Positions 11,001 through 40,737 are shown, numbered from the stretch's first letter. The stretch: DNA of 64,000 nt from an uncultured Halobacteriales archaeon (GCA_964651725.1 CAZYYH010000001.1:2868-66867), one strand, 5' to 3'. Program-made: numbers and translations. The notes: generated by a model not told the origin, from the letters alone.

Positions 11001-11040
11001 CGATCAAACCTACAAATCCGGGTATGAGAGGTGTCCGTAA

Positions 11041-15659: not shown

Positions 15660-15718
15660 CGAGGACTCTATCTGTCTCTTAATCAGAGTTCGGGGTCTAC
15701 TTGATTGTATTATATCCC

Positions 15719-17434: not shown

Positions 17435-17485
17435 AGACCACTGATACCCACGATTAATACGTCTAAGAGTCTTAATCGTGATTAT

Positions 17486-21670: not shown

Positions 21671-22021
21671 ATTCCCCCATGAAAACGAAGACAAATGAAC
21701 GTTTCTACGAACCCAGTGAAGCACATAAAAGACCTCGCTCATGAGAACTTCGGCCAATTTGGACGAGCCTGCCAACTATGTTGCTCAATGACTGTCAACC
21801 CATCCCCTCTTTAATTAGTCCAGAAGTTAGTTCTCATCCCTGTTCAAGTCCTCGTTGTATGCCAATTCACCTTCGGCTGGTCTATGCAGAAGAGCAGATG
21901 GCGTCCGAGACTCCTGACTTCTTACTGATCGCTGCGCGCAGCCTCCCAATCGGACCTGCCCCAGAATTCCCGTACGTCAGAGCGACCCTCAGAAATCAGT
22001 GTGGGTTGACCGATCTAATTC

Positions 22022-22741: not shown

Positions 22742-22872
22742 GGTTTGGCCCACCTGACAGCAGTATTTAAACTGTAGACGTTATTGCCAGGGTGGGCGGA
22801 AACGGTCGGTTCTGACCCAGGCAAAGGGACTTCAGGATGAACCCCCCAATTTGTGATATATTTTAGACGGCG

Positions 22873-22899
22873 TGCTGAATAGAGGGCGCGTATACAGTA
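22873..22899 (+). repeat. 27-bp imperfect palindrome, copy A
   Basis: TGCTGAAT-AGAGGGCGCGT-ATACAGTA, 130 bp upstream of the serine recombinase start. Confidence 0.7.
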
Positions 22900-23004
22900 C
22901 CCGCGTTTCTATCGATGGGAATCCCGGGCGACACCTACCGGGACCAATGTGACAGGACTGCCAGTTCCGTTTCTGGGATTTGGGATCGGCCAGTCAATCC
23001 AGAA

Positions 23005-23679
23005 CTACCCCTGTGCCAGTGTCCAGAGCTTGTATCCGTGATAGGCGAGCCAACCGGTCAGAACGAGCAGGAACGCCCGCTGGGTGAGGCCCTCCCATGG
23101 CGTCTGAATGCTCATCATAAAGACGGCGAACAACCCGATGGCGAGGATTGCGATACCAAGAGGGACGAATCTGTTTGGATAATTGGGCCACCGGTCATCG
23201 TGATTGAGTCCCCACGACGTAAGGGAGATCCCCAGAATGGCTGATGGGAATGACACGAGCGAGGCAAGAATGTGGTATTGGGTCGTCGTCGCCTCAAGAT
23301 TGTTCGGGTTGTGCTGGAAGAAGCCAGCCACGATGACGCCGGTTCCAAAAACGACGAGGAACGGAACGCCGATCAACAGTCGCCATCCTCTATCGGTCCA
23401 GACGAAGACCCCGAGTGCGAAAATAAGAATACTCGCTCCAAAAAGATAGAAATTGAGCTGCTGGACAACAGCGTGTGGGGCCCCGACGGCGGCCAACAGG
23501 CTGATTGGATCACTCACCGCGCTGTACGTGGCCCACATGAACCCCAACACGGTGGCAGCCACCCACCAGATAATGATTCCCGCGAACCCGATGATACCGG
23601 CCCACCCGACCAGCGAGTTCGGTTCCGTCTCGATACCTGGCGACTCTTCAGTTTCTCCCGCCATGTCAGATACACACAC
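23005..23679 (-). CDS. polytopic membrane protein (single-gene cassette)
   Basis: 224 aa with about 6 TM helices. It is the only gene between palindrome copies A and B. An alternative ATG lies at 23664. Confidence 0.65.
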   Translation of the reverse strand: MCVSDMAGETEESPGIETEPNSLVGWAGIIGFAGIIIWWVAATVLGFMWATYSAVSDPISLLAAVGAPHAVVQQLNFYLFGASILIFALGVFVWTDRGWRLLIGVPFLVVFGTGVIVAGFFQHNPNNLEATTTQYHILASLVSFPSAILGISLTSWGLNHDDRWPNYPNRFVPLGIAILAIGLFAVFMMSIQTPWEGLTQRAFLLVLTGWLAYHGYKLWTLAQG

Positions 23680-23740
23680 AGCAACTCGTAGTAAGGTTTT
23701 CCCTGGGAAATATTCGTCTGAACCATCAGCAGAGATACGA

Positions 23741-23767
23741 TGCTGAATCCAGCCTCTGTATTCAGAA
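23741..23767 (-). repeat. 27-bp imperfect palindrome, copy B
   Basis: The plus strand reads TGCTGAAT-CCAGCCTCTGT-ATTCAGAA. By hand alignment it is 22/27 identical to the reverse complements of copies C and D. Confidence 0.75.
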
Positions 23768-23967
23768 GTCTCTACTTGTCACCGTCCCGGCTCCTCCTCT
23801 AAGTCAAAGTAGGCGACGGACTCACCTCATCAGCGGTTCTGGGATGGGTTTGGGCCACTCATGTCGGATTCCCGCGCGGCGTTAGTAGAGTTTGAGGGCG
23901 TCGGCGTGCGGGCGGCGCTCACTCTCGTCGGCGGACTCGTCAGGGAAATCCTCGCATTCGATCTTAA

Positions 23968-24204
23968 TCAGTCGGCAGCCTCCGGCTCGGCGAGCTCGTG
24001 CTCGCGCTCCTGGAGGTCGAGCGGGCGGAGGTCGTCGTCGAGGACGACGACCTCGTGGCGGCCGCGGCCGGTGCGGCGCACGTCGACGGGGTGGCGCTCG
24101 ACCTCGCCGTCGGAGACGACGCCGTCGAGTTCGAGGTCTCCCTTCGGGAGCGTGATCTTCCCGCTTTTTCCCTCGTCACTCGGGGAAAGGACACGTTTCG
24201 GCAT
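23968..24204 (-). CDS. possible AbrB/SpoVT-like small DNA-binding protein
   Basis: 78 aa. GKITLPKGDLELDGV resembles the swapped-hairpin (G.itiPk..r..lg) motif. It is divergent from the structural operon. Confidence 0.45.
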   Translation of the reverse strand: MPKRVLSPSDEGKSGKITLPKGDLELDGVVSDGEVERHPVDVRRTGRGRHEVVVLDDDLRPLDLQEREHELAEPEAAD

Positions 24205-24369
24205 GGGATGTATTGGGAATCTAAACGACTATCTCCCTATAAACACCAGAGGATATGCCGACCTCGACAAGACAATCGTACGATTGTCTTGTAGTACTAC
24301 TGATGTTTTACGCGTAGGGCGCGACGGGGTGCGATAGCGGCCCGTCTCCCGGCGTGGCCGCGGTCAAGA

Positions 24370-24531
24370 ATGGGTAGGGACCCTCGCGAGTCGGCCGCAG
24401 TGGCTGGCTCACACGACGGTTTTCCAACGTACTGCACGGGCGAGAGCGCCGAGGCGCTGCTCCGCGTCACGATCGGCGACGTCGCGCGGCTCGACGACCG
24501 CCTCGCCGCACTCGCCCGGAGGCCAGCATGA
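24370..24531 (+). CDS. small ORF (53 aa), first of the coupled operon
   Basis: Not in the track because it is under 60 aa. MGRDPRESAAV...VTIGDVARLDDRLAALARRPA. Its stop overlaps the next start (ATGA 24528-24531). Confidence 0.3.
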   Translation: MGRDPRESAAVAGSHDGFPTYCTGESAEALLRVTIGDVARLDDRLAALARRPA

Positions 24532-24851
24532 ACGACCCGCGAGCTCGCGGCCTCGCGTTCGTGATCGCCGGCGGGTTCTGGTCGGTCGCGCTCACACTCG
24601 TCGCGGTGTTCCACGCCGCCGACGAGGTCGGGCTCCGGCTCATGGTCGCGTCGACCGTGCCGATCGTGCTCGGCCTCGCGCTCGCGTTCTACGGCACTGA
24701 CGTCGAGCCGGCGGCCGAGGACCGGCCGCGCGCGTCGACCGACGGCGGCCAGCCTGGCGCGGACAAGCTCGCCGACGCGGTCGAAGCCGAGGGGAGCGCC
24801 GCGGTGCGCGACGACGCGCTCGTCGCCGCACTGCGGGGAGGTGACGAGTGA
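24528..24851 (+). CDS. small two-TM membrane protein
   Basis: 107 aa. GLAFVIAGGFWSVALTLVAVF and MVASTVPIVLGLALAFYG are followed by an acidic tail. Confidence 0.6.
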   Translation: MNDPRARGLAFVIAGGFWSVALTLVAVFHAADEVGLRLMVASTVPIVLGLALAFYGTDVEPAAEDRPRASTDGGQPGADKLADAVEAEGSAAVRDDALVAALRGGDE

Positions 24852-24997
24852 TCGACGAGCCGGCCGGCCTCGCCATGGGCGAGGCGTTCCGCCGGTACGT
24901 CACCGAGCTCCGAGAGAGCTGGCCCGTCGACGAACAGCGCCTCGCCGCCGCACGTGGCGACGCACCACTGCGACACTCGACTTCAACCGTAACATGA
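24848..24997 (+). CDS. small ORF (49 aa)
   Basis: The GTG start overlaps the previous stop (GTGA), and its own stop overlaps the next ATG (ATGA 24994-24997). Confidence 0.3.
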   Translation: MIDEPAGLAMGEAFRRYVTELRESWPVDEQRLAAARGDAPLRHSTSTVT

Positions 24998-26523
24998 CAC
25001 AACTCCGACGCGGCCTCATGGCCGCTTTCCTGACCGTACTGCTCGTCGTCTCCGCGGTCGGCCCGGCTATGGCCGCCGCGACGATCGACGACCCGAACCA
25101 GATCAACTACGAGGCGACCGCCTCGCACAACCCGGAGATCCCCGTGGACGTCACCAAGGATGTCCACGTCGTCGGCGAGTGGGGTGTGACCGAGTACGAG
25201 AGCGACAGCGGCGACGTCGTCGCGCTCGACGCGTCGCTGAACGACTCGGTCGCGAACCCGGTGACGCTGACCGCGACCGACGTCAACGTCAGCGAGTTCG
25301 GCGCGTTCCCGCGCACCGGCGACTCGCACGGCAACGCGTCGGCGCTCGACGCGAGCGAGTGGGTGACCGAGGGCGCGAACGCGTCGAAGCTCACGGTGAC
25401 GGACACCACGACCGCGCCGAACGTCGAGGCCGTCCGGATCGACACGGACGGCTCGCTTGGCGCGGATGACGTGGCGGCCGCGAACTACTCGCACGTCAAG
25501 ATCGACTCGGACGAGGACAAGCGCTACCTCCAGCTCGCCGCCGACGTCGACGAGCTCGACACCGGCGCGCACGTCGAGGTGCGCGTGCTCGACGAGGACG
25601 GCGACTACAAGGCCGTCGTGATCGACCCGGACAACTCGACGAACGCCTCGAACGTGCTCGCGAACGGCACGGGCGAGGGCTACGTGCTCCAGCAGCAACT
25701 CGGCGAGCTCACCACGACGACCGTGTCGGGCTCCGACGGCACGTTCGACAACGTGCGCGAGCTGAAAGTGAACGTCACCGACGGCGATTTCGACGGCTCG
25801 TTCGCGCTGATCAACGCCGAGAAGATGGGTCGCTACCTGTTCGGTAAGCAGGCCTACGACGGCGCCGACGACGACTCGGACAAGGACGACACGCGCCAGC
25901 TCTACGAGCCGACGGGCGCGTACTCGATCACGTCGTTCAGCAGCATGGGCGCGGCGTTCGACGGCGCCGAAGTGCATGACGCGACGCTCCCCATGACGTT
26001 CCAGGCGTCGAACCTCGAAAAGAAGATGGACGCGCACGTCGAGTTCACCGAGGACTCGGGCGAGGGCCAGGTGTTCCCGTCGTTCGAGTGGATCGTCGAC
26101 GTCTACTACCGGCTTGAGCTCCCCGCGGCCTACGACCTCTCGTACGCCAACGCGAAGCTCACCGACACGGTGGAGCTCCCGGGCTCGCGCTACCAGTCCG
26201 TCGAGATCGCCGAGGGCGTCGGCGACACGGAGTTCAGCGAGATCTCCTCGTGGACGGACAAGACGAGCTCGTACGACGCGCGCGGCGCGAACGTCACGCT
26301 GGACTCGACGATCCAGCCCGGCCAGCAGATCGCCATTCACTACGAGTACCCCGTCAGCGCCGACGCGAAGTCAGCCATGGCGAACACGGGCGGCGGGCCC
26401 GGCCAGTTTGAGCGGCAGTCGGGCGGCGGGTTCGTCGGCTGGCTCAAGTCGCTCCCGGTGATCGGCTCAATCATCTCGCTCGTCGGAATGCTCCTCGGCG
26501 GCAAGTGGGTCATGGGGAAGTAA
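24994..26523 (+). CDS. secreted, C-terminally anchored surface (spike-like) protein
   Basis: The internal ATG gives MTQLRRGLMAAFLTVLLVVSAVGPAMAAAT, a signal peptide. The body is 509 aa, Asp/Thr/Asn-rich, with many N-x-S/T sequons. The C-terminal TM helix is LPVIGSIISLVGMLLGGKWVMGK. Confidence 0.8.
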   Translation: MTQLRRGLMAAFLTVLLVVSAVGPAMAAATIDDPNQINYEATASHNPEIPVDVTKDVHVVGEWGVTEYESDSGDVVALDASLNDSVANPVTLTATDVNVSEFGAFPRTGDSHGNASALDASEWVTEGANASKLTVTDTTTAPNVEAVRIDTDGSLGADDVAAANYSHVKIDSDEDKRYLQLAADVDELDTGAHVEVRVLDEDGDYKAVVIDPDNSTNASNVLANGTGEGYVLQQQLGELTTTTVSGSDGTFDNVRELKVNVTDGDFDGSFALINAEKMGRYLFGKQAYDGADDDSDKDDTRQLYEPTGAYSITSFSSMGAAFDGAEVHDATLPMTFQASNLEKKMDAHVEFTEDSGEGQVFPSFEWIVDVYYRLELPAAYDLSYANAKLTDTVELPGSRYQSVEIAEGVGDTEFSEISSWTDKTSSYDARGANVTLDSTIQPGQQIAIHYEYPVSADAKSAMANTGGGPGQFERQSGGGFVGWLKSLPVIGSIISLVGMLLGGKWVMGK

Positions 26524-26527
26524 ACCC

Positions 26528-26956
26528 ATGGCTGAATTTCCGTCGGCAGAGAACCTGATCGACCGCGCGGAGGGGCGCTCTCTCACGGGGATCACTAAGC
26601 AGGGCTTCGGCGGGTGGCTGCTCGCCGTCTCGACGTCGATGATCGTCGGGACACAGACAGTCACCGAGTTCCTGCTGTTCCCGTTCGTGCAGGTGATGGA
26701 GATCACCGACTCGACGGTCGACGCGTTCATCCTGAAGCCGCTGACCGTGGTGATCACGGGCTCGGAGGCGACCGCGGCGTCGGTCGCGGAGTTCGAGCTG
26801 TTCGGCTTGCCACTCGGCACAGTAATCGTGCTGTTCACGCTGATGATCGTGTCGTTCTATCTCCGCCGGAGAGCGACGAGCGACACGTTCGTCGGGACGT
26901 TCACCGACTTCGGCGGGAACCTGATCGGTGTGAGAGAGGACACCGACGAGGGCTGA
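26528..26956 (+). CDS. membrane protein
   Basis: 142 aa with about 3 TM helices, in the operon. Confidence 0.65.
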   Translation: MAEFPSAENLIDRAEGRSLTGITKQGFGGWLLAVSTSMIVGTQTVTEFLLFPFVQVMEITDSTVDAFILKPLTVVITGSEATAASVAEFELFGLPLGTVIVLFTLMIVSFYLRRRATSDTFVGTFTDFGGNLIGVREDTDEG

Positions 26957-26965
26957 CCATGCTCG

Positions 26966-27361
26966 ATGCACGAGCAGCCGCCGGGAGGTGGCACCGTGGT
27001 CCGTGATCGCGCCGGCGACAGCGGGCCGAGCGACGAGCTCGTCGACTCGTTCCTCACGAGCGACAACCGCCCCAAGTGGGGCGCGCTCGGTCGCGGGATC
27101 GTCGGCGGCGGGCTGTTCGCGACGATCTACGGCGTGGTGAGCGGCGTGCTTGCGGTCGGCACGGCTCCCTCGCTGTTCGTCGACGGCGTCATGACGGCCG
27201 TGCGAACGAACATCGACCGGTTCCTGCGCGTGCTGAACGGCGAGCTCGCGGCGCTGTGGGAGCCCGCCGTCGACTTCGGGCTGTTCCAGCTCCCGTTCGG
27301 CGTGGTCGTGCTGCTGCTCGTGCTGTCGGTCGCGGCGTGGGGGGTGCGTCAGTTCCGATGA
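26966..27361 (+). CDS. membrane protein
   Basis: 131 aa with 2 TM helices. Confidence 0.65.
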   Translation: MHEQPPGGGTVVRDRAGDSGPSDELVDSFLTSDNRPKWGALGRGIVGGGLFATIYGVVSGVLAVGTAPSLFVDGVMTAVRTNIDRFLRVLNGELAALWEPAVDFGLFQLPFGVVVLLLVLSVAAWGVRQFR

Positions 27362-27873
27362 GTGGCGTTGGCCCGTGGGGTGCGCCGCCGGACGAGGACA
27401 CCCCGGAGACAATCGACGAGAACACGCCCGACACGAGCGGCGGCGGCCCGCTCGTTCCCGCGTGGGTGTGGAACCCCGCGGCGACGATCCGCGGCGTGAT
27501 CTTCCGCCCGATCGTCGAGGGCATCCTCGGGATCGCGCTGACTCTGATCGGGCTGATCATGACGCTGTTCCGCGGGAGCGAACCGGGGTTCAGCCGCGAC
27601 GAACAGGTGTGGGGGCTCGCCGATATCCCGGGAATGGCCGTCGACTTCGGCCTCGACGTCACGACGTGGACGATCACGACGCTGTTCGACGTGCTGATCG
27701 ACGTGAACCGCTCGCTCGTGCCGGCCGCACCCAGTATCATCGATGTCGCCGTGATCTACGTGCTCGTGATCCTGGAGCTCGTGATCCTCGGCGAGCTCGC
27801 GATCCGACTGTTCCGCGCGGTGCTCGACGCGATTCCGGTCGCGTCGGGCGTCGAAACGTTCCTCTGGAAATGA
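27358..27873 (+). CDS. membrane protein
   Basis: The ATG at 27358 overlaps the previous stop (ATGA). 171 aa with several TM helices. Confidence 0.65.
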   Translation: MSGVGPWGAPPDEDTPETIDENTPDTSGGGPLVPAWVWNPAATIRGVIFRPIVEGILGIALTLIGLIMTLFRGSEPGFSRDEQVWGLADIPGMAVDFGLDVTTWTITTLFDVLIDVNRSLVPAAPSIIDVAVIYVLVILELVILGELAIRLFRAVLDAIPVASGVETFLWK

Positions 27874-27875
27874 CA

Positions 27876-28172
27876 ATGCCAGGAAAACTCCGCGAGGCGC
27901 TCGCACATCCGGTTGCGGCAGCGACGACGGCGGCCGGCGCGCTCGCCGGGCTGTTCAACTGGGGGACGGTCGAGGCGCTGCTGACCGTCTTCTGGCTGAA
28001 CGCCGGCAACCTGCTGACGATCGGCACGATCATGGGGTTCACGCTCCCGCGCGTGTTCCCCGAGTTCGCCGGCCTCAAGCAGTACGCGCTCCCGGTCGTC
28101 GCGTTCGCCGCGATCCTCGTCGTGCTCCGCCTTGCCTACGCGACCTACAAGGACACTGACAACCGACTATGA
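27876..28172 (+). CDS. small membrane protein
   Basis: ATG at 27876 (MPGKLREALAHP...). 98 aa with 3 hydrophobic helices. Confidence 0.6.
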   Translation: MPGKLREALAHPVAAATTAAGALAGLFNWGTVEALLTVFWLNAGNLLTIGTIMGFTLPRVFPEFAGLKQYALPVVAFAAILVVLRLAYATYKDTDNRL

Positions 28173-28230
28173 GACACACAGACCACGGAACGACACGGAA
28201 CCGCACGCAGAGCAACCGAGGTGAGCAGCT

Positions 28231-28659
28231 GTGAACGCGGTCGGCGCGTTCCTCGTCGACAACTGGCTATGGCTGCTCGGCAGCGTGCTCACCGCGCTGA
28301 TCGTGTACTGGTGGTGGGACGAACGCCAGGACGCCCGCACGCCCGGCGAGACCGTCGACCGCGTCACCGATCGGGTCGAGGCCGCGACCGGCGGCGCGGC
28401 GGACGGCTTCACGTCGCTCGTTATTGGGCTCGTCTCGATCGGCTCGACGCTCGCCGTCGAGTTCCTCGGCATGGCCGGGGAGCTGAACGAGGCGCTCGGC
28501 GGCGTGCCGTTCGTGATCGGCTATCTGCTGTTCGGCGCGCTCTCGCTCGTGGGGATCCAGCTCGACGTCGAGCCGACGACGCTCGGCTTCGCGTTCCTGC
28601 TGATCCTCGTGATCGCGGCCATGGCGCGCTTCGGCACGGGCGACGGGAGGACCGCATGA
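28231..28659 (+). CDS. membrane protein
   Basis: 142 aa from a GTG start, with about 4 TM helices. Confidence 0.6.
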   Translation: MNAVGAFLVDNWLWLLGSVLTALIVYWWWDERQDARTPGETVDRVTDRVEAATGGAADGFTSLVIGLVSIGSTLAVEFLGMAGELNEALGGVPFVIGYLLFGALSLVGIQLDVEPTTLGFAFLLILVIAAMARFGTGDGRTA

Positions 28660-28919
28660 CCGGCGGCGTCGACGCGCTCCTGGAGCGCCTCGCGGTCGAC
28701 GAGCGCGTGGTCGCGTTCGCGGCCCGGTTCGTGCTGGCCGTCATGAACGGCGCGATCGGCGCGCTCATACTGCTCGCGATCGCGACCGCGCCGATCCCGG
28801 CGGACGCGCTGGTGATCGCCGTCGTGCTGGCCGCGCTGCTCGTGGTGACGGCGATCGTGTTCGCGTTCGACGCGCGGGCGGTCTACTGCGGCGAGGCGGC
28901 CGCGGAGGTGACGGCGTAG
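28656..28919 (+). CDS. small membrane protein
   Basis: The ATG at 28656 overlaps the previous stop (ATGA). 87 aa with 2-3 TM helices. Confidence 0.6.
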   Translation: MTGGVDALLERLAVDERVVAFAARFVLAVMNGAIGALILLAIATAPIPADALVIAVVLAALLVVTAIVFAFDARAVYCGEAAAEVTA

Positions 28920-30989: not shown

Positions 30990-31825
30990 TGTCGAGCGAG
31001 CACGCGCCGGCTGACGCCGAGAGCGGCGAGTCGGTGCTCCCGACGTTCGAGCCGCCCGACGACACGAGCGAGGAGATCGCGGCCGTGCGGCCCGCGCTCC
31101 GCAACCTGAACCTGGAACAAGAGCGCGCGCTCCGCGCGTTCCGCGACGACGGCGTCGAGACGCGCGGGGCGCTGCTCGCGTGGCTCCTGCGGCTCCAGTA
31201 CCGCACGCTCGGCCGGATCCCCGACTACTGGTACTACCACATCGCGACCCGGCCGTCGGCGCTCGCGGTCGTGCTCACCGGCGAGACGCGCGGCCAGTAC
31301 GGCGCGCGCGACGGCACGCAGATCACGCCCGCCGAAGCGTGGAGCTACCGGCGGCGGCTCGTCGCGACCTATCTCCGCCCGGCGTGCCGGGACGCGCTCC
31401 GGGAGCTCCGCACCAAGGCCGTCGAGTACAACGACGCCGACGACGAGCTCGACCCGGAGCGCATGGCGGCGCTCGCCATGCGGCCCGCGCTCGACGAGTA
31501 CTACAAGCGCCAGCGCGAGGCACTCTCGGAGTGGCTCGCCGGGTTCGAGAGCGTGGAGGCGCTCGACGGGTTCTGCCACGATCTCGATTACGACACGTTC
31601 GGCGCGATCAAAGAGGTCGCGCCGCGGTTCGACTACGAGCTCCTCGACGACCCGGTCGCAACCCGTGCGCTCACCGTCGACGAGCCGCACTACGAGCAGG
31701 CGCGCGAACGGATCGCCGCCCGGTATCTGCTCCCCGCGTTCAACGTCTCGGTTCGGACGCTGGCGGAGAAGGCCGGTGAGACGGACGATACGACGACGGA
31801 CGCCACGGGAGGCGTCGACGTATGA
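30989..31825 (+). CDS. hypothetical soluble acidic protein
   Basis: 278 aa. The start overlaps the previous stop (TAATG). Confidence 0.7.
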   Translation: MSSEHAPADAESGESVLPTFEPPDDTSEEIAAVRPALRNLNLEQERALRAFRDDGVETRGALLAWLLRLQYRTLGRIPDYWYYHIATRPSALAVVLTGETRGQYGARDGTQITPAEAWSYRRRLVATYLRPACRDALRELRTKAVEYNDADDELDPERMAALAMRPALDEYYKRQREALSEWLAGFESVEALDGFCHDLDYDTFGAIKEVAPRFDYELLDDPVATRALTVDEPHYEQARERIAARYLLPAFNVSVRTLAEKAGETDDTTTDATGGVDV

Positions 31826-33147: not shown

Positions 33148-33339
33148 TCGCGTCGATCTCGCCGCGCGACCGGTCGGCGCGAAATGCTGGAAATCTGACT
33201 CCAGATACGCGCGCGTGTATCGAATCGAACAGGACAACCCCCCCTGCGGGTGCGCACGCGGTTGCTGTCGGTCGCGAGCGCTCGCTCGCTCGCCGCCAGC
33301 CGCGGGCGCTGGTGAGCGGCTTAAAGGGGGTGCGGGCTC

Positions 33340-36300
33340 GTGCGTAGCCGTGGCCTCGCACGCGGGGCGCGAGCGGTCGCGCTCGTCGTGCTCGTGGTGA
33401 CGGCCGCGCTCGCCGGCGTGATCGCGCCGGCGGCGGCGACGCCCGGCGGCTCGTCGAGCAGCGACGGGAGCGGTGGCTCGCCGCCGGCCGGCATGGTCGG
33501 CGTCTCGGACAAGAACGTGCGGACGGCGACTGATCCCGGTCAGTCGCTCCCGGTGCAAGCGAACGCGCTCCAGGGCGGCGCGGTCTACACCGAGAAGCAC
33601 GCGGGCACGCTGGAGGTGACGCTCACCACGGCCTCGCACGCCAGCGCGGTCATGGGGCCGAACGCGAAGGCGAACCCGAGCGCTCGGGCTGGTGCGGCGA
33701 GCTCGCCCGTACTGGTGCTCGCGGACGACACGAACCACGCGGGCCGACCCGTCGCGGTCGAGGCGAGCGTGCTCCGCGAGCTCTACGGCTACCTCCCCGA
33801 AATGGCGTACGGCGTCCACTCGTCAGGCGAGCCGTGGGAGCAGCCGATCAGCTACGACGACGGCTACGCGGTGTTCGAGGTGCCGCGGTTCTCGTCGAAC
33901 ACGATCGCGTTCGAGGGCGAGTTCGAGTATCGGGCGAGCCCGGCGACCGACGGCTCGTCAGTCCAGTACGGCCTCCAGGACGTCGACGCCGCGGATAACT
34001 TCTCGATCGACCTCACGGGCCATATCGCCTCGGAGACCGACACGGTGACCGCGTCGAGTGTCGGCGACGGCGGCACGGTCGGGCTCGACGTGGCGGGGAA
34101 CCTCGATCCGACGAACGCCAGCGTGGCGTTCACGGGCCACCGGACGGAGACGGCGCGCACCGAGACCGGCTCGACCGGACTCGGCGGGGCATCGGCCTCG
34201 ATCTCCATCACGGGCAACCGCGACCCGCTCGGACCCGGCGGCTCGGGCGACCCCGAACTCACGCTCACCGGGAACTACGACGAGCAATCAAACTCCAATG
34301 GCGGCGGGTTACCCGTGACCCGTACTTACTCGGGGATGACCGGGGAACTGGGGACGGTGAGCGTCACCGTAGCGATTCAAGTGGCTGATAGTTGTAGAAG
34401 TTACAACTTCGACGTGTACGTGAACGGCTCCTGGCACAACAACGTCGGGGGCGCAAGCCACTGTAAAAACTGGGACACGGCGTCGAAAACAAGCACCGCT
34501 ACGATAAATGAGCCGACGAACGGCAACGACGTGGAGATTCGCGTCGAAACCAGCGACAACAACATCAATTACGAGTCGTCGTGGGTGCGGTATAACACGC
34601 CGCAGAACGTCGACGTGTCGACGGATACCGGGCAGAGCGTGACGTTCGGGGATTTCAACCCCGGCCAGTCAAAGATGATGACGGTCAACGCGGGGGCTGA
34701 CACGTCTACGCTCACGTTCTCGGGCACCGGGAAAAGTGCAGGATGGTCGTTCAACTACACCGACGTCGAACAGACGGACTCGCCCGGTCTCGATGTGGAC
34801 GGTGATGGCGTACCCGACGCGTCCGTGTCGGGGTATCTCGCCGATGGAGAGACGGTGACGCGCACCTTCTCGGGGCTCTCCCTGTCCGACGAGACAGGCA
34901 CGGTGTCGCTCGGCGGCGGCACCGTCGATGTCGAGGTGACGTACGACGAGCGGACGCAAACCGAGGACGCGGGCATCGAGGTGAACGGCCAGTGGACTAA
35001 CCACTCGGGGGTACTCGCCGACGGGTCGACGACGACGCTCGCGGGGAACGAGTCGTGGCTCCAGGCGGGCACGAACCGCGTGAACGTCTCGGTGGGTGGC
35101 GGGTCGCTCTCCGCGGACGCGCCGACGCCCGCGGTCGAGCTCGTCTACTCGCACACGGCGACGAACCGCAAGTCGGTGGCGTACGCCGCCGAGGAGTGGA
35201 CGGATCGCTACAACGTCTCGGAGCAGTATCAGTCCGAGCGTGTCGCCGCGTCGATGGAGATCCCGTTCGAGCACAACGTGGTGCAGCTCCGCGATCTGGC
35301 GGTGCGGATCAACGAGTCGGGCGGCTGGAGCACGATCGCGAGCGCGAACTACGACCTGTCTGGGAACGACCTGACGGTCGATCTCGATGCGGTCTACGGC
35401 GGTACGATCCCCGCCGGCACCACGTTCGAGGTGCGCACCAACGGCTCGAAGGTCAAGACGCACAACATGACGCTGACCGTGGTGGAGGCGACGCCGTACG
35501 GCGAGACGCTCGACAGTAAGATCGAGTTCGACGCGGTCGGATCGAACGCGTACCTCGACGTCGGGCCAACCCGGAACGGCGATCGGCTCCACTACCTCTA
35601 CTCCGAGTCGTGGAGCTCGCCCGCGGAGTACGTGATCGTCACGGGCGGCGGCGAACAGCAGCTCTACGCGCCGGGCGCGTCGGCGGGCGCCGTGGCACGC
35701 GTCACGCACTTGGAGACGCAGGCGATCGTCGAGACGGGTGACGTCAAGATCCATGTTCAGCAGGGCGGGGAGAATCCGGAGCTCGACATTGATCCCGGCC
35801 CGGCGGGCGCCGGGGACGCGGTGACGTACAAGCACTACGCGACGACGTCGGGCGTCGAGTACATCCTCTACTCGCTGACGAACGGGATCCAGCACGCGAT
35901 CGCCGAGGCGCAGTCGCCAGTTGCGCTCGTCGACGACGACAGCGACGAGGATCTCGTGATCAAGACCGACGACGCGAACACGAGCTCGTCGGACGGCGGG
36001 AGCGACGACAGCGGGCCGATCCGCGACCGTATCCCCGGTCAGTTCCAGCAGGAGAGCGGCGGCGTGAACTGGCCGGTGCTCGCGGGGACGCTCGTCGTGG
36101 TGCTCGGCGGGCTCTACCTCGGCGGGCGTGCGCTCCGGTCGCGCGTCGGCTCCAGGAGCTCGGCGCGCTCGACCGCGTCGGGCCGGGGCGTGTCGAGTCG
36201 GCTGAACCGCGCGCTGCTCGGGTTCGTCCGTGGCGTCAGCACGGGCGCCGAGGCGCTCACCAAGCGCCCGAAGGTCGCGGCGGCGGTCGGCGTGCTCGCC

Positions 36301-36648
36301 GCGCTCGCGGCGGTGCTGACGGGCGCGCTCCCGTTGCCGGCTGGCACGGGCGTCGTGCTGCTCGTCACCGGCGTTCCCGTGGTGACGTACGTCGGGTTGC
36401 GGCGGCTCGACTCGTACTCGCCGCTGGTGTTCGGCACGGTGTCGCTGATCTCCGTGGTGCTCGGGCTCCAGTTGCTCGGCGGCGATCTCGTGGGGACGAT
36501 CTTCGGGAGCGAGCAGTTCCAGCAGTTCCTTCCGATCCTCGGCCTCGCGGCGCTCTACGTCGCGTACAAGGGCGTCCAGGCGGTGCGGGCGCCCGAGTCG
36601 ACGACCGAGCTCGTCGTTCAGGCGGCGCGCCGGGGAGGTGACTCGTGA
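33340..36648 (+). CDS. very large secreted surface protein with C-terminal multi-TM anchor
   Basis: 1102 aa from a GTG start. The signal peptide is ...AVALVVLVVTAALAGVIAPAAATPGG. The ectodomain is Thr/Ser/Asp/Gly-rich and the last ~200 aa contain about 5 TM helices. Confidence 0.85.
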   Translation: MRSRGLARGARAVALVVLVVTAALAGVIAPAAATPGGSSSSDGSGGSPPAGMVGVSDKNVRTATDPGQSLPVQANALQGGAVYTEKHAGTLEVTLTTASHASAVMGPNAKANPSARAGAASSPVLVLADDTNHAGRPVAVEASVLRELYGYLPEMAYGVHSSGEPWEQPISYDDGYAVFEVPRFSSNTIAFEGEFEYRASPATDGSSVQYGLQDVDAADNFSIDLTGHIASETDTVTASSVGDGGTVGLDVAGNLDPTNASVAFTGHRTETARTETGSTGLGGASASISITGNRDPLGPGGSGDPELTLTGNYDEQSNSNGGGLPVTRTYSGMTGELGTVSVTVAIQVADSCRSYNFDVYVNGSWHNNVGGASHCKNWDTASKTSTATINEPTNGNDVEIRVETSDNNINYESSWVRYNTPQNVDVSTDTGQSVTFGDFNPGQSKMMTVNAGADTSTLTFSGTGKSAGWSFNYTDVEQTDSPGLDVDGDGVPDASVSGYLADGETVTRTFSGLSLSDETGTVSLGGGTVDVEVTYDERTQTEDAGIEVNGQWTNHSGVLADGSTTTLAGNESWLQAGTNRVNVSVGGGSLSADAPTPAVELVYSHTATNRKSVAYAAEEWTDRYNVSEQYQSERVAASMEIPFEHNVVQLRDLAVRINESGGWSTIASANYDLSGNDLTVDLDAVYGGTIPAGTTFEVRTNGSKVKTHNMTLTVVEATPYGETLDSKIEFDAVGSNAYLDVGPTRNGDRLHYLYSESWSSPAEYVIVTGGGEQQLYAPGASAGAVARVTHLETQAIVETGDVKIHVQQGGENPELDIDPGPAGAGDAVTYKHYATTSGVEYILYSLTNGIQHAIAEAQSPVALVDDDSDEDLVIKTDDANTSSSDGGSDDSGPIRDRIPGQFQQESGGVNWPVLAGTLVVVLGGLYLGGRALRSRVGSRSSARSTASGRGVSSRLNRALLGFVRGVSTGAEALTKRPKVAAAVGVLAALAAVLTGALPLPAGTGVVLLVTGVPVVTYVGLRRLDSYSPLVFGTVSLISVVLGLQLLGGDLVGTIFGSEQFQQFLPILGLAALYVAYKGVQAVRAPESTTELVVQAARRGGDS

Positions 36649-36651
36649 CAC

Positions 36652-36957
36652 ATGCTCGAGCCGGCGCCACTCGTGCTGACGGACGTGCTGGCGTGGCTCG
36701 GCGTCCGGGGGTCGATCGTACTCGTCGCGTCGGCGATCGTCGCGGCGTACCACGGGCACTCACTGCTGGCGTTGTTCGCGACGCTCGGGGTCTACGCCCG
36801 GATTGCCGGGTTGTTCGTGCTGTTCGCCGTGGTGGCGTACGCGGGGTTGATTCCGGGCGTTCACGTCTCGATCGACGTGCCGACGCTCGCGGAGTTCCTC
36901 AGTCGGGTGTGGTCGTGGCTCCCGATTCCGGAGCCCGGAGGACAGCTTCCGTGGTGA
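36652..36957 (+). CDS. small membrane protein
   Basis: 101 aa with 3 TM helices. It is the last gene of the operon. Confidence 0.55.
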   Translation: MLEPAPLVLTDVLAWLGVRGSIVLVASAIVAAYHGHSLLALFATLGVYARIAGLFVLFAVVAYAGLIPGVHVSIDVPTLAEFLSRVWSWLPIPEPGGQLPW

Positions 36958-37001
36958 TTCAGGTGTGAGGGAAGTGCGGCCAGCGAATCGAGACGGGCGG
37001 C

Positions 37002-37027
37002 TGTGGCAGTCTCCCCATGATTCAGCA
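37002..37027 (-). repeat. imperfect palindrome, copy E (degenerate left half)
   Basis: The plus strand reads TGTGGCAG-TCTCCCCATG-ATTCAGCA, 45 bp after the end of the structural operon. Confidence 0.5.
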
Positions 37028-37150
37028 CAACAAGGCAAAGCACCCCGGCGCGTACTACGGCGACGCGGCGGACCAAGCGACGCTCGATGAGTACGCGTAG
37101 CTTCTGGGCACCAGCTCCCTTGAAAACCCCATCATCTGAGAAGAAGGACA

Positions 37151-37177
37151 TGCTGCATACAGAGGGTGAGTTCAGCA
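37151..37177 (+). repeat. 27-bp imperfect palindrome, copy C
   Basis: TGCTGCAT-ACAGAGGGTGAG-TTCAGCA. The low-GC sequence starts immediately to its right. Confidence 0.75.
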
Positions 37178-37320
37178 TGCGATTCTTGTCCGCACACATT
37201 GGATAGGCAAGACGTATATCTTGATCTCTGTCACAGTTGTTCCCCATGTCCACTGGTTACGGAGCACTCAGCCCATCCTCTCCAATTTCACCGAGCAATT
37301 TCTGTTAGTATGTCCTAAAG

Positions 37321-38643
37321 TCAAATAGTCTGGAGTTTCACTCCCGTCGTTACGGCCCACTCTCCATCACCATGACTAGGGATACGAGAGCGACCATCCT
37401 CTCCAACATATATTAGAGTAACCGTTGGTTCTCCCTCAGCCGGTCGCCCGAATCGCTCTACTTCGATTCGAACATTGATGTCTGTCCGTGAAGGGGCAAC
37501 ATCATCAATTTCCACCAATTCAAATGACTGCAGGTCAAGGTGCTCAAAGTCCCGGCGAATATCACCCGGATGTTCGGTGTCACCACTAGTCGTCCGTAGC
37601 AAATTCGCCATCCGCCCGTAGTTCTCACCATCCCAGAAGGTTAGAAGTTCAATAAGGGCACGTTCAGCCGTATCTTCTTCATATTCTTCAGGGTCACCTA
37701 TAGTCGGGACATCTTCGCCGACAGTAATATCCCGTGGCATCCATTCGTCAATTGCTTCCTCCATTTCCTGAGTTTCTTGGAATGATTCTAAGGCATCTAT
37801 AAGTTGTTCCCAAAAACCGCGTTCGTCTTCATCTTCCGATTCCTCCAGTTCTCCCTGCTCGGCTTTCCGCACCCACTCTGCAGCTGCGAAAAGCGCACCC
37901 CACGTCTTGGCCGCGACCAGCAGATTGTCGTACCCGAGATCCATTCCATGCATAATTCCATTTCGGTAGGGTTTATCGAGTTCTTCTGTCTGGGTCTGCT
38001 GCCGGCCTTGAAGCATCAAGTCCTGCAAATATTCTAAGCCAGTACTGTGACCGGCTATTGAATCCCACGCCTGCAAATTCGCGTCAGACGCGGAAAACCC
38101 ACGGCTTTCGCCATATGCATTGACATATGCCTCGTGTACCATCCCATCTAACAAAGCTAATACGACCGGAACAGACGCATGATACCGTTCAGCGGCATAA
38201 TCCTCTAGGGCATCTAAAGCCAGGTCTCTACGCGGTTGAAACGCATCTACGTCGGATAACAAGCTGATCTTCTGCTCGATGACATCCGAATCATAATACT
38301 CGATCAAGTGATTTTCCGCTTTCCCCAAATCACCATTCTCAGCATGTTCAACAACGGTTTCAGCCACCCCTAAATTCATTCCCTCATAGATGATCCACCC
38401 TTCTGGGCCGAGATGGTCGTTGAACCTATCAGGGATTTCAGCGATTTCTTCGGCTCGCTGTGCGAGGTCCTTAACGTCAGCATTATCAAGGGCATCATTG
38501 ATCCGGTCGATATCGACATTCAGGTTTTTGAGTACGGTTTCAAGATACGGGTAGGTACTTTTAAGCCGTTCCAGCTCATGTGCTCTATTCAATAATTCTT
38601 GGATTTTCGGGATGTCCTTGATTTTCTCGTTTCTCATTTTCAT
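37321..38643 (-). CDS. HEPN-motif protein (putative Abi-type RNase)
   Basis: 440 aa. KPYRNGIMHGMDLGY contains the RNxxxH (Rx4-6H) HEPN signature mid-protein. The N-terminal region is helical and the C-terminal ~150 aa form an acidic beta-rich domain. Confidence 0.75.
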   Translation of the reverse strand: MKMRNEKIKDIPKIQELLNRAHELERLKSTYPYLETVLKNLNVDIDRINDALDNADVKDLAQRAEEIAEIPDRFNDHLGPEGWIIYEGMNLGVAETVVEHAENGDLGKAENHLIEYYDSDVIEQKISLLSDVDAFQPRRDLALDALEDYAAERYHASVPVVLALLDGMVHEAYVNAYGESRGFSASDANLQAWDSIAGHSTGLEYLQDLMLQGRQQTQTEELDKPYRNGIMHGMDLGYDNLLVAAKTWGALFAAAEWVRKAEQGELEESEDEDERGFWEQLIDALESFQETQEMEEAIDEWMPRDITVGEDVPTIGDPEEYEEDTAERALIELLTFWDGENYGRMANLLRTTSGDTEHPGDIRRDFEHLDLQSFELVEIDDVAPSRTDINVRIEVERFGRPAEGEPTVTLIYVGEDGRSRIPSHGDGEWAVTTGVKLQTI

Positions 38644-38723
38644 GGTCCGGTTTTATTAGGCATATAGATAAGGGCATTCTCCGTAAAAATTCTGCTGGTC
38701 CTGCATCCATGACATAAATGGCG

Positions 38724-38750
38724 TGCTGTATACAGAGGGTAGATTCAGCG
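38724..38750 (+). repeat. 27-bp imperfect palindrome, copy D
   Basis: TGCTGTAT-ACAGAGGGTAGA-TTCAGCG, between the two divergent HEPN genes. Confidence 0.75.
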
Positions 38751-38850
38751 ATTAGTTCTGAAACATGTGGATAGCCTTTCCTGCACTCGGCAGGGCTGTA
38801 TAGCCTTCCGTCCGGATTAGGTTTATTTATCTGGATTTCAAGAAGCCACT

Positions 38851-40164
38851 ATGGATGACGATACTGCATATTGTATCGAGATACTTGTGGATGCAGTAGA
38901 GCAGAATGATGACGGTGGCTGGAAGTACTCTGGATCAGAGGCGACAAGAAAGCTCAAACGCCTCTCACCGATTGTCGTTGAGAACCTCAGTCTTGACCCT
39001 GACTCGCTACGGATTTCGTATGAAGTGCTGGAAAGTGAACTGAATAATCTCTTGTTGGAAGTAAAGGGGGCGGATGACCCTGCACAGCAGGTAGAAGAGA
39101 AGCTACCAGAGTTTAAGGAGCGATTGTATGGATGGGATTTGAGCGAATACGTGGTAGCATTCCCACTCAATTTCGACCGCCGCTCATCTGAGTTGTTACC
39201 GGAATCGCCACAGGTCGGTGATATTGTTTTCGAACGCCTCCCGCGTAGCGAATGGGAAGAACGGTTTGTTCCCGACTACGATGAAGACCACGACAACTAC
39301 CGCCGGCAGAGAAAGCTGATGGACTTCGTGGATAAAAGTCCGAACGAACTGGATAATCTGTGGTTCACCTACTGGTTTGCGTCGTACAGGGCAAGAGGTG
39401 AGAAGTACGCTGTTGACCATGTGGTTGAGCAGTTAGAAATCCTGCTGGGGATGATGAACTACTCTGCAACGTTCAATAGAATACAGACATACTCGCAGGA
39501 TCCGGGGCCGTGGCCTGACCGATGGGGAGAGCTTCGAGAACCATTCATCTATCTGTTGCACAAACAGGACGAGTTCGTGAGGCATTATTGGAGTGTAGAC
39601 GCCACCCTTCGGGAGCCAGACAGTCCGCATAGTATGTACGAAGATATGTTTGAATCACTATTCGAGGAGATGCCTACCATTGAGGAGGAACAACCACTGG
39701 ATGGCCGACTATTGAATTCCCTACGAGCATTTCAAGCAGCAATGACAGAGCCCTCGGAGCGTGAGTCTTTCTTCGAGTTCTGGAGAGGAATCGAGATCCT
39801 CACACTCGTTGAGGAAGGCGAAAGGATGTCTGAAGTAGTTGATAGGGCAGCGGCAATGTTAGGATGGAAAGACTCGGAACTTGGCCGGATTAGACGAAAC
39901 CGGGCACAGAACAAGCGGAATTCGTACGTCCATGAAGGTGCAGGTTTACGGTTGACCATCGCTGATCGGAATCTCGTCAAGAGTCTCCATGAATCCCTCA
40001 TAGACCTATACATAGACAAACGAGGAGATTGGGGCTATGAAGAGATGAAATTCGCGCTGGAACAGTTCACAGTGGATGAAGCACAGATCGAGAATCTACG
40101 TGAAGACCGAAACCGTGAGTTACAATTGATTGATTGGTTCGAAGAGATGTCCGAGGAGAATTAG
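38851..40164 (+). CDS. HEPN-motif protein (Apea-like architecture, motif near C-terminus)
   Basis: 437 aa. RAQNKRNSYVHEGAG (R356-H361, nt 39916-39933) is an RNxxxH motif. Confidence 0.75.
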   Translation: MDDDTAYCIEILVDAVEQNDDGGWKYSGSEATRKLKRLSPIVVENLSLDPDSLRISYEVLESELNNLLLEVKGADDPAQQVEEKLPEFKERLYGWDLSEYVVAFPLNFDRRSSELLPESPQVGDIVFERLPRSEWEERFVPDYDEDHDNYRRQRKLMDFVDKSPNELDNLWFTYWFASYRARGEKYAVDHVVEQLEILLGMMNYSATFNRIQTYSQDPGPWPDRWGELREPFIYLLHKQDEFVRHYWSVDATLREPDSPHSMYEDMFESLFEEMPTIEEEQPLDGRLLNSLRAFQAAMTEPSERESFFEFWRGIEILTLVEEGERMSEVVDRAAAMLGWKDSELGRIRRNRAQNKRNSYVHEGAGLRLTIADRNLVKSLHESLIDLYIDKRGDWGYEEMKFALEQFTVDEAQIENLREDRNRELQLIDWFEEMSEEN

Positions 40165-40207
40165 CGGCCTCAGCACAATCTGTGGCCTTCAGCTATCCGA
40201 ATACGTG

Positions 40208-40234
40208 TGACCGATACGCGCCCTGTATTCAGCA
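40208..40234 (-). repeat. 27-bp imperfect palindrome, copy F
   Basis: The reverse complement reads TGCTGAAT-ACAGGGCGCGT-ATCGGTCA. The 22-mer at 40214-40235 (rc) matches 22872-22893 at 21/22 positions. Confidence 0.75.
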
Positions 40235-40737
40235 CAGCAGCGTAAACCCATCATCGGTTATAGTTTTCAATAGAGCTGTTCTACCCTAAGCGCCGGTGGG
40301 GTTCTCGTCCCACGGGCGTACCGACCGACGTACTACCTGTTCACGTCCTGCACAAGCGTTCAGCTGCCCGTGTCGGCTGACTCGCCAGCCGCCGCCGCGC
40401 GGCGAGCGCTATGCGAGCCGCGCACTTGGCCGACCCCCTTAGGGGCTACTACCCTAAGGGCGCCCGAGGAAAGGCCGCGGCGGGCCGAACCCGTTACGCG
40501 GCGGAGAGAGCGCGAGAGCCCGGCGAGAACAGCGGAAGCCTGGTGTGTGGCGCGCGGCGCGAGCGCGAGAAACTGGCGAGGGTGGCGCGCGAGGCCGGGG
40601 TGAAAGCAGTGAAAACGTACTGGTGCGGCTACAGGACAGTGGCTTTAGGGTTTACGACGGGTGGGGTGCGGGGAAAAAAGGCGCGTGGGACAGCGCTGTC
40701 GCTGGCGACCGCGGCGAGCACGCCGAAATCTCGGCGG

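Follow-up and report, generated by a model that had tools for sequence, protein, structure and literature searches.

Two short sequences lying in inverted orientation on either side of a 17.3-kb segment raise the question of whether this segment is invertible, was acquired as one block, or is bounded by two sites that have little to do with each other. Both lie in the window, which is the whole 64,000-nt stretch analysed here, and the sequence-only reading had named them copies A and F, had placed them far closer to each other than any other pair of copies, and had proposed a large segment inverted by a Hin/Gin-type serine recombinase encoded beside A or the two ends of an acquired composite block. 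Recomputation reproduced the sequences, coordinates and inverted orientation exactly. The plus strand reads GTGCTGAATAGAGGGCGCGTAT at 22872-22893 and the minus strand reads GTGCTGAATACAGGGCGCGTAT at 40214-40235, with 21 of 22 positions identical and one mismatch. In 100 dinucleotide-preserving shuffles there was no case with two matches to this 22-mer, and the chance expectation is none. Elsewhere in the window the nearest approach to it has 6 mismatches, while other true copies of the family have 7-8; since nothing else comes closer, the claim of exceptional closeness holds. The pairwise similarity of A and F reaches 28/33 nt and no further, which rules out a longer homology between these two. 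Nevertheless, a profile of the family end matched A (E 2.3e-14) and F (E 2e-16), each over approximately 65-75 nt. The 22-mer is thus part of a longer conserved end, a situation that the sequence-only reading had itself named as one that would count against it.

This end is approximately 71 nt long and consists of a 42-nt outer arm with an IS6-like tip (GGCTCTGTTGAA), followed by a 29-bp core made of an 11-bp arm, a 7-bp spacer and a second 11-bp arm. The 22-mer corresponds to the left arm, the spacer and the start of the right arm of this imperfect palindrome. In a set of 50 cores without an exact copy of the 22-mer used for searching, conservation was 94-100% in the left arm TGCTGAATA and weaker in the right arm. 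Two spacer classes could be distinguished. A cargo gene has an S core (spacer AGGGCGC) on its 3' side and, in inverted orientation relative to this, a W core (spacer AGAGGRT) on its 5' side. The rule is not strict, as one copy in the window (D) occupies an S position yet carries a W-type spacer. In the 11-7-11 layout the dyad axis falls on a base and there is no central dinucleotide; on its architecture, such a core would fit a tyrosine recombinase and not the 2-bp crossover of a serine recombinase.

Searches outside the window revealed that the family is widespread in Halobacteria, where it occupies plasmids and islands of low GC content and carries very diverse cargo. The exact 22-mer was present in 82 hypersaline metagenome contigs representing approximately 64 distinct contexts, and the end of about 70 nt was found in 140 haloarchaeal plasmids at 257 places in more than 40 genera; a search of viral contigs for the 22-mer returned no match. 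At no fewer than 14 loci, a second, inverted end could be located 0.5-2.5 kb inward, around single genes. The cargo genes were mutually unrelated (CBS, EamA, DUF998, DUF2270 and others), and cassettes were found in both orientations. W cores preceded the start codons of cargo genes by 60-100 nt, S cores came just past stop codons, and the gene adjoining an S core lay on the opposite strand in 35 cases vs 14. Adjacent cores formed 36 inverted and 23 direct pairs, so the alternation of orientation is imperfect; in the plasmids L096 and L097, cores alternate in orientation with one gene in each interval.

The same organization could be recognized in the window. The core of copy A (22872..22900, plus strand) is of the S type, with the sequence GTGCTGAATAG-AGGGCGC-GTATACAGTAC, begins with the 22-mer and matched the core profile at E 2e-7. 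Its 42-nt outer arm (22830..22871, plus strand) is homologous to the IS6-like terminal arm, with the terminal 8 nt or so (expected GGCTCTGT) decayed. The partner of A is copy B (23740..23812, minus strand), consisting of a W-type core at 23740-23768 (CTTCTGAATAC-AGAGGCT-GGATTCAGCAT) and a degenerate outer arm, and between the two lies the cargo, a DUF998 membrane protein gene (23005..23679, minus strand), for which B forms the 5'-side end. A metagenome cassette (L057) also carries DUF998 cargo. The core of copy F (40207..40235, minus strand) is again of the S type (GTGCTGAATAC-AGGGCGC-GTATCGGTCAC), with its 22-mer at 40214-40235, and is followed by an outer arm (40236..40277, minus strand) with a well-preserved IS6-like terminus (AGCTCTATTGAAAAC...). 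Its partner is copy E (38677..38751, plus strand), a degenerate arm and a W-type core at 38723-38751 with the spacer AGAGGGT, which forms the 5'-side end of a cassette carrying a 437-aa gene (38851..40164, plus strand). Copy D (37113..37178, plus strand) carries a terminal arm (AGCTCCCTTGAAAACCCC...) and a W-type core at 37150-37178 with the same AGAGGGT spacer as E, and lies 3' of a 440-aa cargo gene (37321..38643, minus strand). Neither the 437-aa nor the 440-aa product could be assigned to a family, and the two genes are not paralogues.

Based on this organization, A and F most probably (probability roughly 0.78) belong to two separate mobile cassettes that hold one gene each and point in opposite directions, A-B with the DUF998 gene and E-F with the 437-aa gene, and each copy forms the S-type end of its own cassette. 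The 21/22 identity of A and F is then explained by the family-wide conservation of the S core, and their inversion by the opposite directions of the two cassettes. A and F are very probably recombination or mobility sites, as had been proposed, and their inverted orientation stands. They are not a dedicated pair, given that the 22-mer and its longer end recur on so many contigs and plasmids and that each copy has its own nearby partner around one gene. The termini of B and D face outward and delimit a high-GC (0.685) interval (23813..37112, plus strand) which contains an 11-gene operon at 24528-36968 and is outside any cassette, and the GC content changes in steps at the cassette borders (0.55 / 0.685 / 0.49 / 0.70). 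The enclosed genes had been described correctly in outline, including the membrane gene, while the labels "AbrB-like" and "HEPN" found no support in Pfam, PADLOC or NCBIfam.

The terminal arms were compared with known transposon ends. At both ends of 12 end pairs the consensus tip GGCTCTGTTGAAA was observed, and in 7 of the 12 the 8-bp flanks were at least 7/8 identical (5 perfect), compared with an average of 0.58 such pairs in permuted controls. A multi-gene unit of 2.5 kb (L032) likewise had a perfect 8-bp duplication. The IS6 family is characterized by a tip with GG, by the motifs cTGTt and caaa and by duplications of 8 bp (PMC7986276), and IR-L of IS6100 is GGCTCTGTTGCAAA (PMC10470526). 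The tip GGCTCTGTTGAA resembles this IR-L and, together with the 8-bp duplications, agrees with the family signature. A tblastn search with an approximate Tnp26 query revealed no transposase with these termini and no Tnp26-like ORF in approximately 640 kb of fetched loci, so the IS6 assignment is one of termini and duplication length. A "transposase" overlapping an end in a Halomicrobium plasmid (L092) proved to be a TnpB gene truncated by the cassette and was discarded as a cognate transposase. Literature searches with the sequence strings returned only IS6100 papers, and the elements in the Haloquadratum MITE/PATE/SMR catalogue (PMC3119063) are of other types. Cassette insertion would occur by DDE transposition, in which an IS6-type transposase acting in trans would create the 8-bp target duplications. 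In the window, the tips are kept in F and D and decayed in A, B and E, and target duplications assessed for five arrangements (A-B, E-F, D-F, the composite A-F and pre-inversion pairings) were no better than in shuffled controls.

A second activity is suggested by the genes that accompany the cores. A 234-aa PF00589 protein starts 44-157 nt from a core in four loci (L010, L052, L041 and L064), and likewise in L037. Homologues of this tyrosine recombinase were found in 45 plasmids, and in all five plasmids that were fetched, one core lies 45-100 nt upstream of the recombinase gene and another just downstream; one of the cores overlaps its promoter region. The best model for the protein was archaeal XerA, at 52 bits vs a cut-off of 220, and comparison with the PDB gave no sequence match. 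No homologue of it could be found in the window. Natural mosaics were also observed. L023 and L081 have the right side in common and differ on the left, L010 and L052 have the left side in common and differ on the right, and in both pairs the breakpoint is inside the core, with the left arm going with the left flank and the right arm with the right flank. The cores may thus be crossover sites, used by a small, Xer-like tyrosine recombinase whose gene often neighbours a core. Strands would be exchanged within the 7-bp spacers of two cores that agree in this spacer, and modules would thereby be joined, swapped, inverted or resolved, much like the pdif modules of Acinetobacter. Judged by these sequence patterns, the family appears to be moved by the small tyrosine recombinase and an IS6-like transposase, and not by the serine recombinase next to A. 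More tentatively, and at somewhat less than even odds, Halobacteria may harbour a widespread and apparently undescribed cassette-exchange system, in which a dedicated Xer-like tyrosine recombinase of 234 aa, itself carried as a module, acts on the 29-bp 11-7-11 cores, which fall into two spacer classes and enclose single-gene modules, and in which the IS6-like arms also allow transposition.

Whether A and F have recombined with each other was considered in view of this enzyme. An inversion between them by the tyrosine recombinase of the family, past or ongoing, would be compatible with the two-cassette reading and would add a dynamic claim to it, and we regard it as unlikely. It stays mechanistically possible because the AGGGCGC spacers of A and F are identical, and these lie inverted as in pdif-site inversions; mosaic junctions at cores do exist in nature. 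In the Logan contigs of SRR9010614 (one independent assembly, from which minor variants would be filtered out), only the window's junctions were found at A and F. One contig (L007) joins the left arm of F to its own right arm, another (L001) passes straight through A, and no A/F hybrid core was present among the assembled contigs. Two contigs do overlap on exactly the 29-nt F core, giving a branch of the assembly graph at that point. However, a branch at the borders of the 29-mer is also expected from another identical core elsewhere, and the F 29-mer, one base longer (30-mer), does occur in the metagenome contig L024. The absence of the cognate recombinase from the window also speaks against the inversion. 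Relatives in which the orientation could be compared were not found by megablast of 21.8-41.2 kb against plasmids, and the homologues of a 1102-aa operon protein were at most 43% identical; the source itself is present at NCBI as one 70-kb contig. The argument that an A-F inversion would unite a low-GC island was dropped as evidence, because either arrangement gives a mosaic and legitimate cassettes.

The conservation of the cores could also reflect expression control of island genes, with the cores serving as operators or terminators for a dimeric transcription factor. All cores are intergenic and palindromic, and their placement upstream of start codons (W) or right after stop codons (S), with one over the promoter region of the recombinase gene, would suit such a role. 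However, the mosaics break exactly at cores, the distance from core to transposon tip is a constant 42 nt within units bounded by target duplications, and they are tightly linked to the recombinase gene across genera. No Rfam family was found at the sites and RNAalifold on 22 ends revealed no covarying helix. A regulatory role as the explanation of the family is therefore quite improbable.

The serine recombinase gene (22022..22741, minus strand) indeed neighbours end A, as had been reported, with its ATG 131 nt outside the copy. The protein has a Resolvase domain (PF00239, E 7e-29) and a C-terminal HTH (HTH_23). Enzymes of the Hin/Gin type act at inverted sites of about 26 bp, in which 12-bp half-sites surround a central 2-bp crossover, and their systems include an enhancer within the recombinase gene that depends on Fis, a bacterial protein. 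A small serine recombinase beside one of two nearly identical, inverted sites is what an invertible 17.3-kb segment flipped through A and F by this enzyme would predict. The site nevertheless has the 29-bp 11-7-11 layout with no central dinucleotide, and it occurs in more than 200 places elsewhere in which this recombinase is missing. Four genomes with homologues of the recombinase (59-69% identity) contained no core within 10 kb of the gene, and these homologues share a different conserved upstream palindrome of their own. The scores against NCBIfam invertase models were far below the cut-offs, the same-strain Logan contigs traverse A and the F core in the configuration of the window, and the family-wide neighbour of the core is the small tyrosine recombinase. 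A Hin/Gin-style segment is consequently very improbable, and the serine recombinase is a bystander, with nothing found that would link it to the site family. Equally hard to sustain is movement of the 17.4 kb bounded by the A and F termini as one composite transposon: the outer tips are outward-facing and inverted, as whole-block transposition needs, and some units of the family with perfect 8-bp duplications do carry several genes, but the terminal 8 nt of A are off the tip consensus, no 8-bp duplication surrounds the block (best match 6/8, null P ~0.67), the GC content breaks at the cassette borders into a native-like 0.685 core between cassettes of 0.49-0.55, and functional IS6 compound structures carry direct and not inverted copies (PMC7986276). 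The 17-kb "invertible operon" beside a serine invertase is thus a false lead, better explained as two independent cassette ends.

Among known systems, the dif modules of Acinetobacter provide a close parallel. These are small, often one-gene modules with diverse accessory functions and inversely oriented arm-spacer-arm sites of about 28 bp, they occur as plasmid arrays in which site orientation tends to alternate, and exchange and inversion take place between pdif sites sharing a spacer (PMC13141974). The haloarchaeal cassettes are alike in their 11-7-11 cores, the excess of inverted adjacent cores (36 vs 23), the alternating arrays of L096 and L097 and the mosaics at cores. They differ in their archaeal host, in a spacer of 7 bp instead of 6, in unrelated arm sequences and in two spacer classes, with S on the 3' side of the cargo and W on the 5' side. 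In place of host XerC/XerD there is a dedicated gene for a 234-aa recombinase, which is a module in its own right, and many ends add a terminal arm of the IS6-like type together with target duplications of 8 bp. To our knowledge, dif modules have neither of these last two features. If the cassette-exchange system is real, it would be an archaeal counterpart of the dif modules fused to a transposon end, and the 17.3 kb including the 11-gene operon could be flipped by recombination of the S core of A with that of F.

Non-autonomous derivatives of IS6/IS26 (MITEs and mobile insertion cassettes) share the tip signature, the 8-bp duplications and the lack of an internal transposase. Inverted repeats in the IS6 family are 15-20 bp long, whereas each end here extends over about 71 nt and contains a conserved palindrome, passenger genes are carried, and the two ends differ systematically in their spacer. 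A review of the family mentions a single IS6 member with a passenger (PMC7986276). ISfinder lists a haloarchaeal IS6-family MITE, MITEHarch3 (PMC6807381), which may be an empty member of this cassette family; a match in the halophilic archaeon DL31, considered as a possible MITEHarch3, was not a short empty element. Integron gene cassettes are comparable in being promoter-poor, single-gene units of diverse function with a palindromic site at the 3' end of the gene and a tyrosine recombinase. The cores here, however, are short, conserved in sequence and present in inverted orientation at both cassette ends, cassettes occur in both orientations, target duplications are found, and the 234-aa recombinase scored 19 bits on the integron-integrase model (cut-off 265). 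Integron membership was rejected, as neither an IntI-type integrase nor structured attC cassettes in one orientation were found. Hin/Gin/Cin systems share a small serine recombinase gene beside one of two inverted sites, and differ from the present family in its 29-bp odd-dyad site, its hundreds of sites, its linkage to a tyrosine recombinase and its lack of co-occurrence with the serine recombinase family.

If the cores are recombinase sites, module shuffling in haloarchaea would be comparable to that of pdif modules or integrons and would partly account for the mosaic accessory regions, low in GC, that haloarchaeal megaplasmids contain, and the recombinase with its site would provide a testable pair for archaeal genetics. 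The signature GTGCTGAATA[C/G]AGGGCGCGTAT inside the ~71-nt end is conserved and easy to search for, and it identifies cassettes of accessory genes in more than 40 genera, both on plasmids and in islands of haloarchaea. A hairpin of variable register was also noticed by eye in the outer arm of this end.

The 22-mer at 22872-22893 (+) and its inverted, one-mismatch copy at 40214-40235 (-) could be confirmed exactly as claimed in the sequence-only reading, and such a two-match outcome was obtained in 0 of 100 dinucleotide-preserving shuffles. These two sites, copies A and F, were also the closest pair in the window, as had been stated, all remaining window sites being at least 6 mismatches from the 22-mer. 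An exact-pattern scan allowing C or G at position 11 revealed the 22-mer in 82 hypersaline metagenome contigs, with one copy per contig and approximately 64 distinct contexts. Viral contigs gave no match to the 22-mer. The 73-nt consensus of the block around the 22-mer was present at 257 places on 140 haloarchaeal plasmids from more than 40 genera, nearly all of these matches being located in intergenic DNA without annotation. The flanking genes of the 22-mer sites were extremely diverse on both sides. Sites of the A/F type very probably serve mobility or recombination in a widespread cassette family that appears not to have been described before.

Alignment of the copies revealed that each family end consisted of a 42-nt arm beginning GGCTCTGTTGAAATCC, followed by a 29-bp imperfect palindrome (the core), of which the 22-mer forms the first 22 nt. 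The palindrome has two 11-bp arms separated by a 7-bp spacer, e.g. GTGCTGAATAC-AGGGCGC-GTATCTTGCAC. Among 50 profile-found cores without the exact searched 22-mer, the left arm TGCTGAATA was 94–100% conserved, the right arm (TAT...GCA) was less conserved than the left, and the spacers fell into classes. Profile search placed a second, inverted end 0.5–2.5 kb away in at least 14 contigs, usually with one gene between the two. The end containing the 22-mer used as search pattern (S end, spacer AGGGCGC) was located 3' of the cargo gene, and the gene adjoining it lay on the opposite strand in 35 cases versus 14. Its partner (W end) was located 5' of the gene and had the same 42-nt arm and palindrome arms with the spacer AGAGGRT.

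Further elements were observed around these ends. An inner box, GATCGGTCAATACAG, similar to the core left arm, recurred 40–60 nt inside the S core in many metagenome loci (e.g. L009, L017, L019, L020) and may be an accessory binding site; copy F contained a partial GTGCTGAGG about 37 nt inside its core (about 40169-40177). In five loci (L045, L065, L021, L031, L050), the arm to the left of the S core was of another type that is not IS6-like (...TCGGTCAC-GCTCTTACTGACAGC-N-...); it was approximately 80% identical among several loci and starts with the apparent right arm of another core. In one further locus (L054, the same as L069 and L088), a CRISPR array of six repeats (Rfam CRISPR-DR24; 22-382) ended about 150 nt from an S-type end (531-552).

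Five ends were present in the window, namely A (S type, 22830-22900, +), B (W type, 23740-23812, -), D (W type, 37113-37178, +), E (W type, about 38677-38751, +) and F (S type, 40207-40277, -). Ends A and B enclose a DUF998 gene, which is likewise the cargo of a metagenome cassette (L057), ends E and F enclose a 437-aa gene, and end D is located 3' of a 440-aa gene. Copies A and F thus represent the S ends of a pair of oppositely facing cassettes; they are far more alike than either is to B, D or E because those three are of W type, and they are inverted because their cassettes face opposite ways.

The 8 nt just outside both GGCTCTGTTGAA tips formed direct repeats (at least 7 of 8 positions matching) in 7 of 12 pairs, 5 of them perfect, compared to a mean of 0.58 such pairs in permuted controls, and the repeat sequence varied between pairs. 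Duplications of 8 bp, together with a tip containing GG, CTGTT and AAA, characterize the IS6/IS26 family (PMC7986276), and the IS6100 IR-L is GGCTCTGTTGCAAA (PMC10470526); the family tip for matching to haloarchaeal IS6-family copies is GGCTCTGTTGAAA. No transposase was found among the cassette cargo genes and no Tnp26-like ORF in the fetched loci, thus the units behave as non-autonomous passenger-carrying cassettes, on which an IS6-type transposase would act in trans. In a Halomicrobium urmianum plasmid (L092), the annotated 'transposase' at 2240-3091 is in fact a TnpB (OrfB_IS605) gene. Its 3' end extends into the tip of a cassette, which apparently inserted into an IS605-type element.

In several contigs, a 234-aa gene of the Phage_integrase family started 44–157 nt from an S core that lacked the 42-nt arm (L010/L052, L041, L064, also L037). 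Homologues of this recombinase with 70–98% identity were found on 45 plasmids of many genera. In all five fetched plasmids, an opposite-strand core preceded the recombinase gene by 45–100 nt, in one case with exactly the 22-mer of copy A, and a second core directly followed the stop codon. Cores alternated + - + - in two plasmids with one gene in each interval; an array in Haloprofundus consisted of a PQQ propeller, the recombinase and pip, and a similar array was present in Halorubrum. Across the loci as a whole, adjacent cores formed 36 inverted and 23 direct pairs. Two natural mosaics broke within the core: L023/L081, with right sides 98% identical and left sides unrelated, and L010/L052, with recombinase sides 90% identical and right sides unrelated. 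In both, each core arm stayed with its own flank, the pattern expected from crossover in the spacer. The best curated model for the 234-aa protein (e.g. WP_260644206, WP_224337887) was archaeal XerA, with a score of 52 bits where the cut-off is 220, and the PDB held no sequence relative. We propose that this recombinase would carry out crossover in the 7-bp spacer, with cleavages 7 bp apart and recombination restricted to cores sharing an identical spacer. Cores D (37150-37178) and E (38723-38751) lie on either side of the 440-aa gene as direct repeats with one and the same spacer, AGAGGGT, and under this model that module could be excisable as a circle.

The conservation, the architecture, the target duplications, the recombinase-gene association and the mosaic junctions of the family were observed directly. 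In its working, the family would be closest to the Acinetobacter dif modules. In both, small modules of diverse content are bounded by arm-spacer-arm sites in inverted orientation; the exchange known from Acinetobacter, between sites of equal spacer, may take place in the cassette family as well. The cassette family differs in being archaeal and in its 7-bp spacer, whose two classes mark the two sides of the cargo. It further has its own small recombinase gene, which forms a module in its own right, and a terminal arm of IS6-like type accompanied by target duplications. It is also similar to IS6-derived MITEs and mobile insertion cassettes, and ISfinder includes a haloarchaeal IS6-family MITE, MITEHarch3 (PMC6807381), which may be an empty member of the family. 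The family is neither an integron nor a Hin/Gin system. No description of the element was found in the literature.

The 17.3 kb between A and F had previously been read as a serine-invertase switch or an acquired composite block. A and F are inverted relative to each other and have identical spacers. In Acinetobacter, dif-module sites paired in exactly this way bring about inversion of one to three modules (PMC13141974), and inversion of the 17.3-kb segment would therefore be mechanistically plausible, given a cognate recombinase elsewhere in the genome; no homologue of the 234-aa recombinase was found within the window. Four Logan contigs of run SRR9010614 were 100% identical to the window (12022-23349, passing unbroken through A; 36552-38988; 38959-40235; 40207-44416). 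The last two of these (L094 and L007) overlapped by exactly the 29-nt F core (40207-40235), indicating a branch point of the de Bruijn graph at each border of the core. Within the core there is no branch, the left arm of F being followed by the right arm of the same copy. Neither A/F hybrid core (GTGCTGAATAG-AGGGCGC-GTATCGGTCAC or GTGCTGAATAC-AGGGCGC-GTATACAGTAC) was assembled in the Logan contigs of this run. Such branching means that the identical 29-mer has another context in the reads, either a second cassette or a recombination product; the simplest reading is a further copy of this 29-mer at a different place in the genome, and the F 29-mer, extended by one base (30-mer), was found in a metagenome contig (L024). 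A rare inversion would be compatible with the Logan contigs. The collections contained no close relatives for a comparison of orientation.

An acquired composite block was also largely unsupported by the sequence of the segment. The window has a haloarchaeon-like G+C content of approximately 70% with islands of approximately 48% at 6–22 kb and 37–40.2 kb, and the values by segment were 0.55 for A-B, 0.685 for B-D with its operon, 0.49 for D-F and 0.70 for the right flank. These steps at cassette borders indicate a mosaic rather than a single acquired block. The terminal 8 nt of end A were decayed, and no target duplication could be recovered at the window copies in any arrangement, including around the block and in a hypothetical pre-inversion state.

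The small serine recombinase just outside copy A was confirmed at 22022-22741 (-), with PF00239 and HTH domains and its start codon 131 nt from A. A switch driven by it was largely unsupported, as no cores occurred within 10 kb of four homologues (59–69% identity; Halorubrum, Halobaculum) and adjacency was the sole link to the sites that could be found. The protein also scored far below the cut-offs of curated invertase and resolvase models. The four homologues and the window gene have in common another conserved upstream palindrome and a TATA box. In the homologue loci (L002-L005), this upstream block reads GGCGAGAAGC-N6-TTCTCGCC, then CTGGCGAATAGG, then the TATA box; the window copy (22742-22830) is degenerate, and L004 has a second palindrome copy in direct orientation 5.5 kb upstream (4395-4418). 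This palindrome may be the true recombination site of the serine-recombinase family.

Other genes of the window included a tightly packed 11-gene operon at 24528-36968 (+) with a native-like G+C content of 0.69, encoding products of 107, 560, 142, 131, 265, 232, 689, 278, 441, 88/1102 and 107 aa. The operon gave no significant Pfam or NCBIfam match, and the 1102-aa protein had distant homologues only (at most 43% identity), including in Halarchaeum grantii and Haloferax sp. The low-GC island at 6000-22000 (0.49) carries defence-type genes, namely a 1429-aa MmeI/Eco57I-like type IIG enzyme (17486-21775; DrmMI-like in PADLOC), a SocA/Panacea-domain protein (PDC-M19A; 12608-13117) and DUF2321 (16712-17434). 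A minus-strand, high-GC gene block at 40738-48228 encodes DUF7845 (625 aa), C5 and D12 DNA methyltransferases and a DnaJ-domain protein; the tRNA-Ser that ARAGORN predicts at 40875-40948 falls within the DUF7845 ORF and is probably a false positive. The block, whose end lies close to tRNA-Pro(GGG) (48156-48228), is possibly an integrated element.
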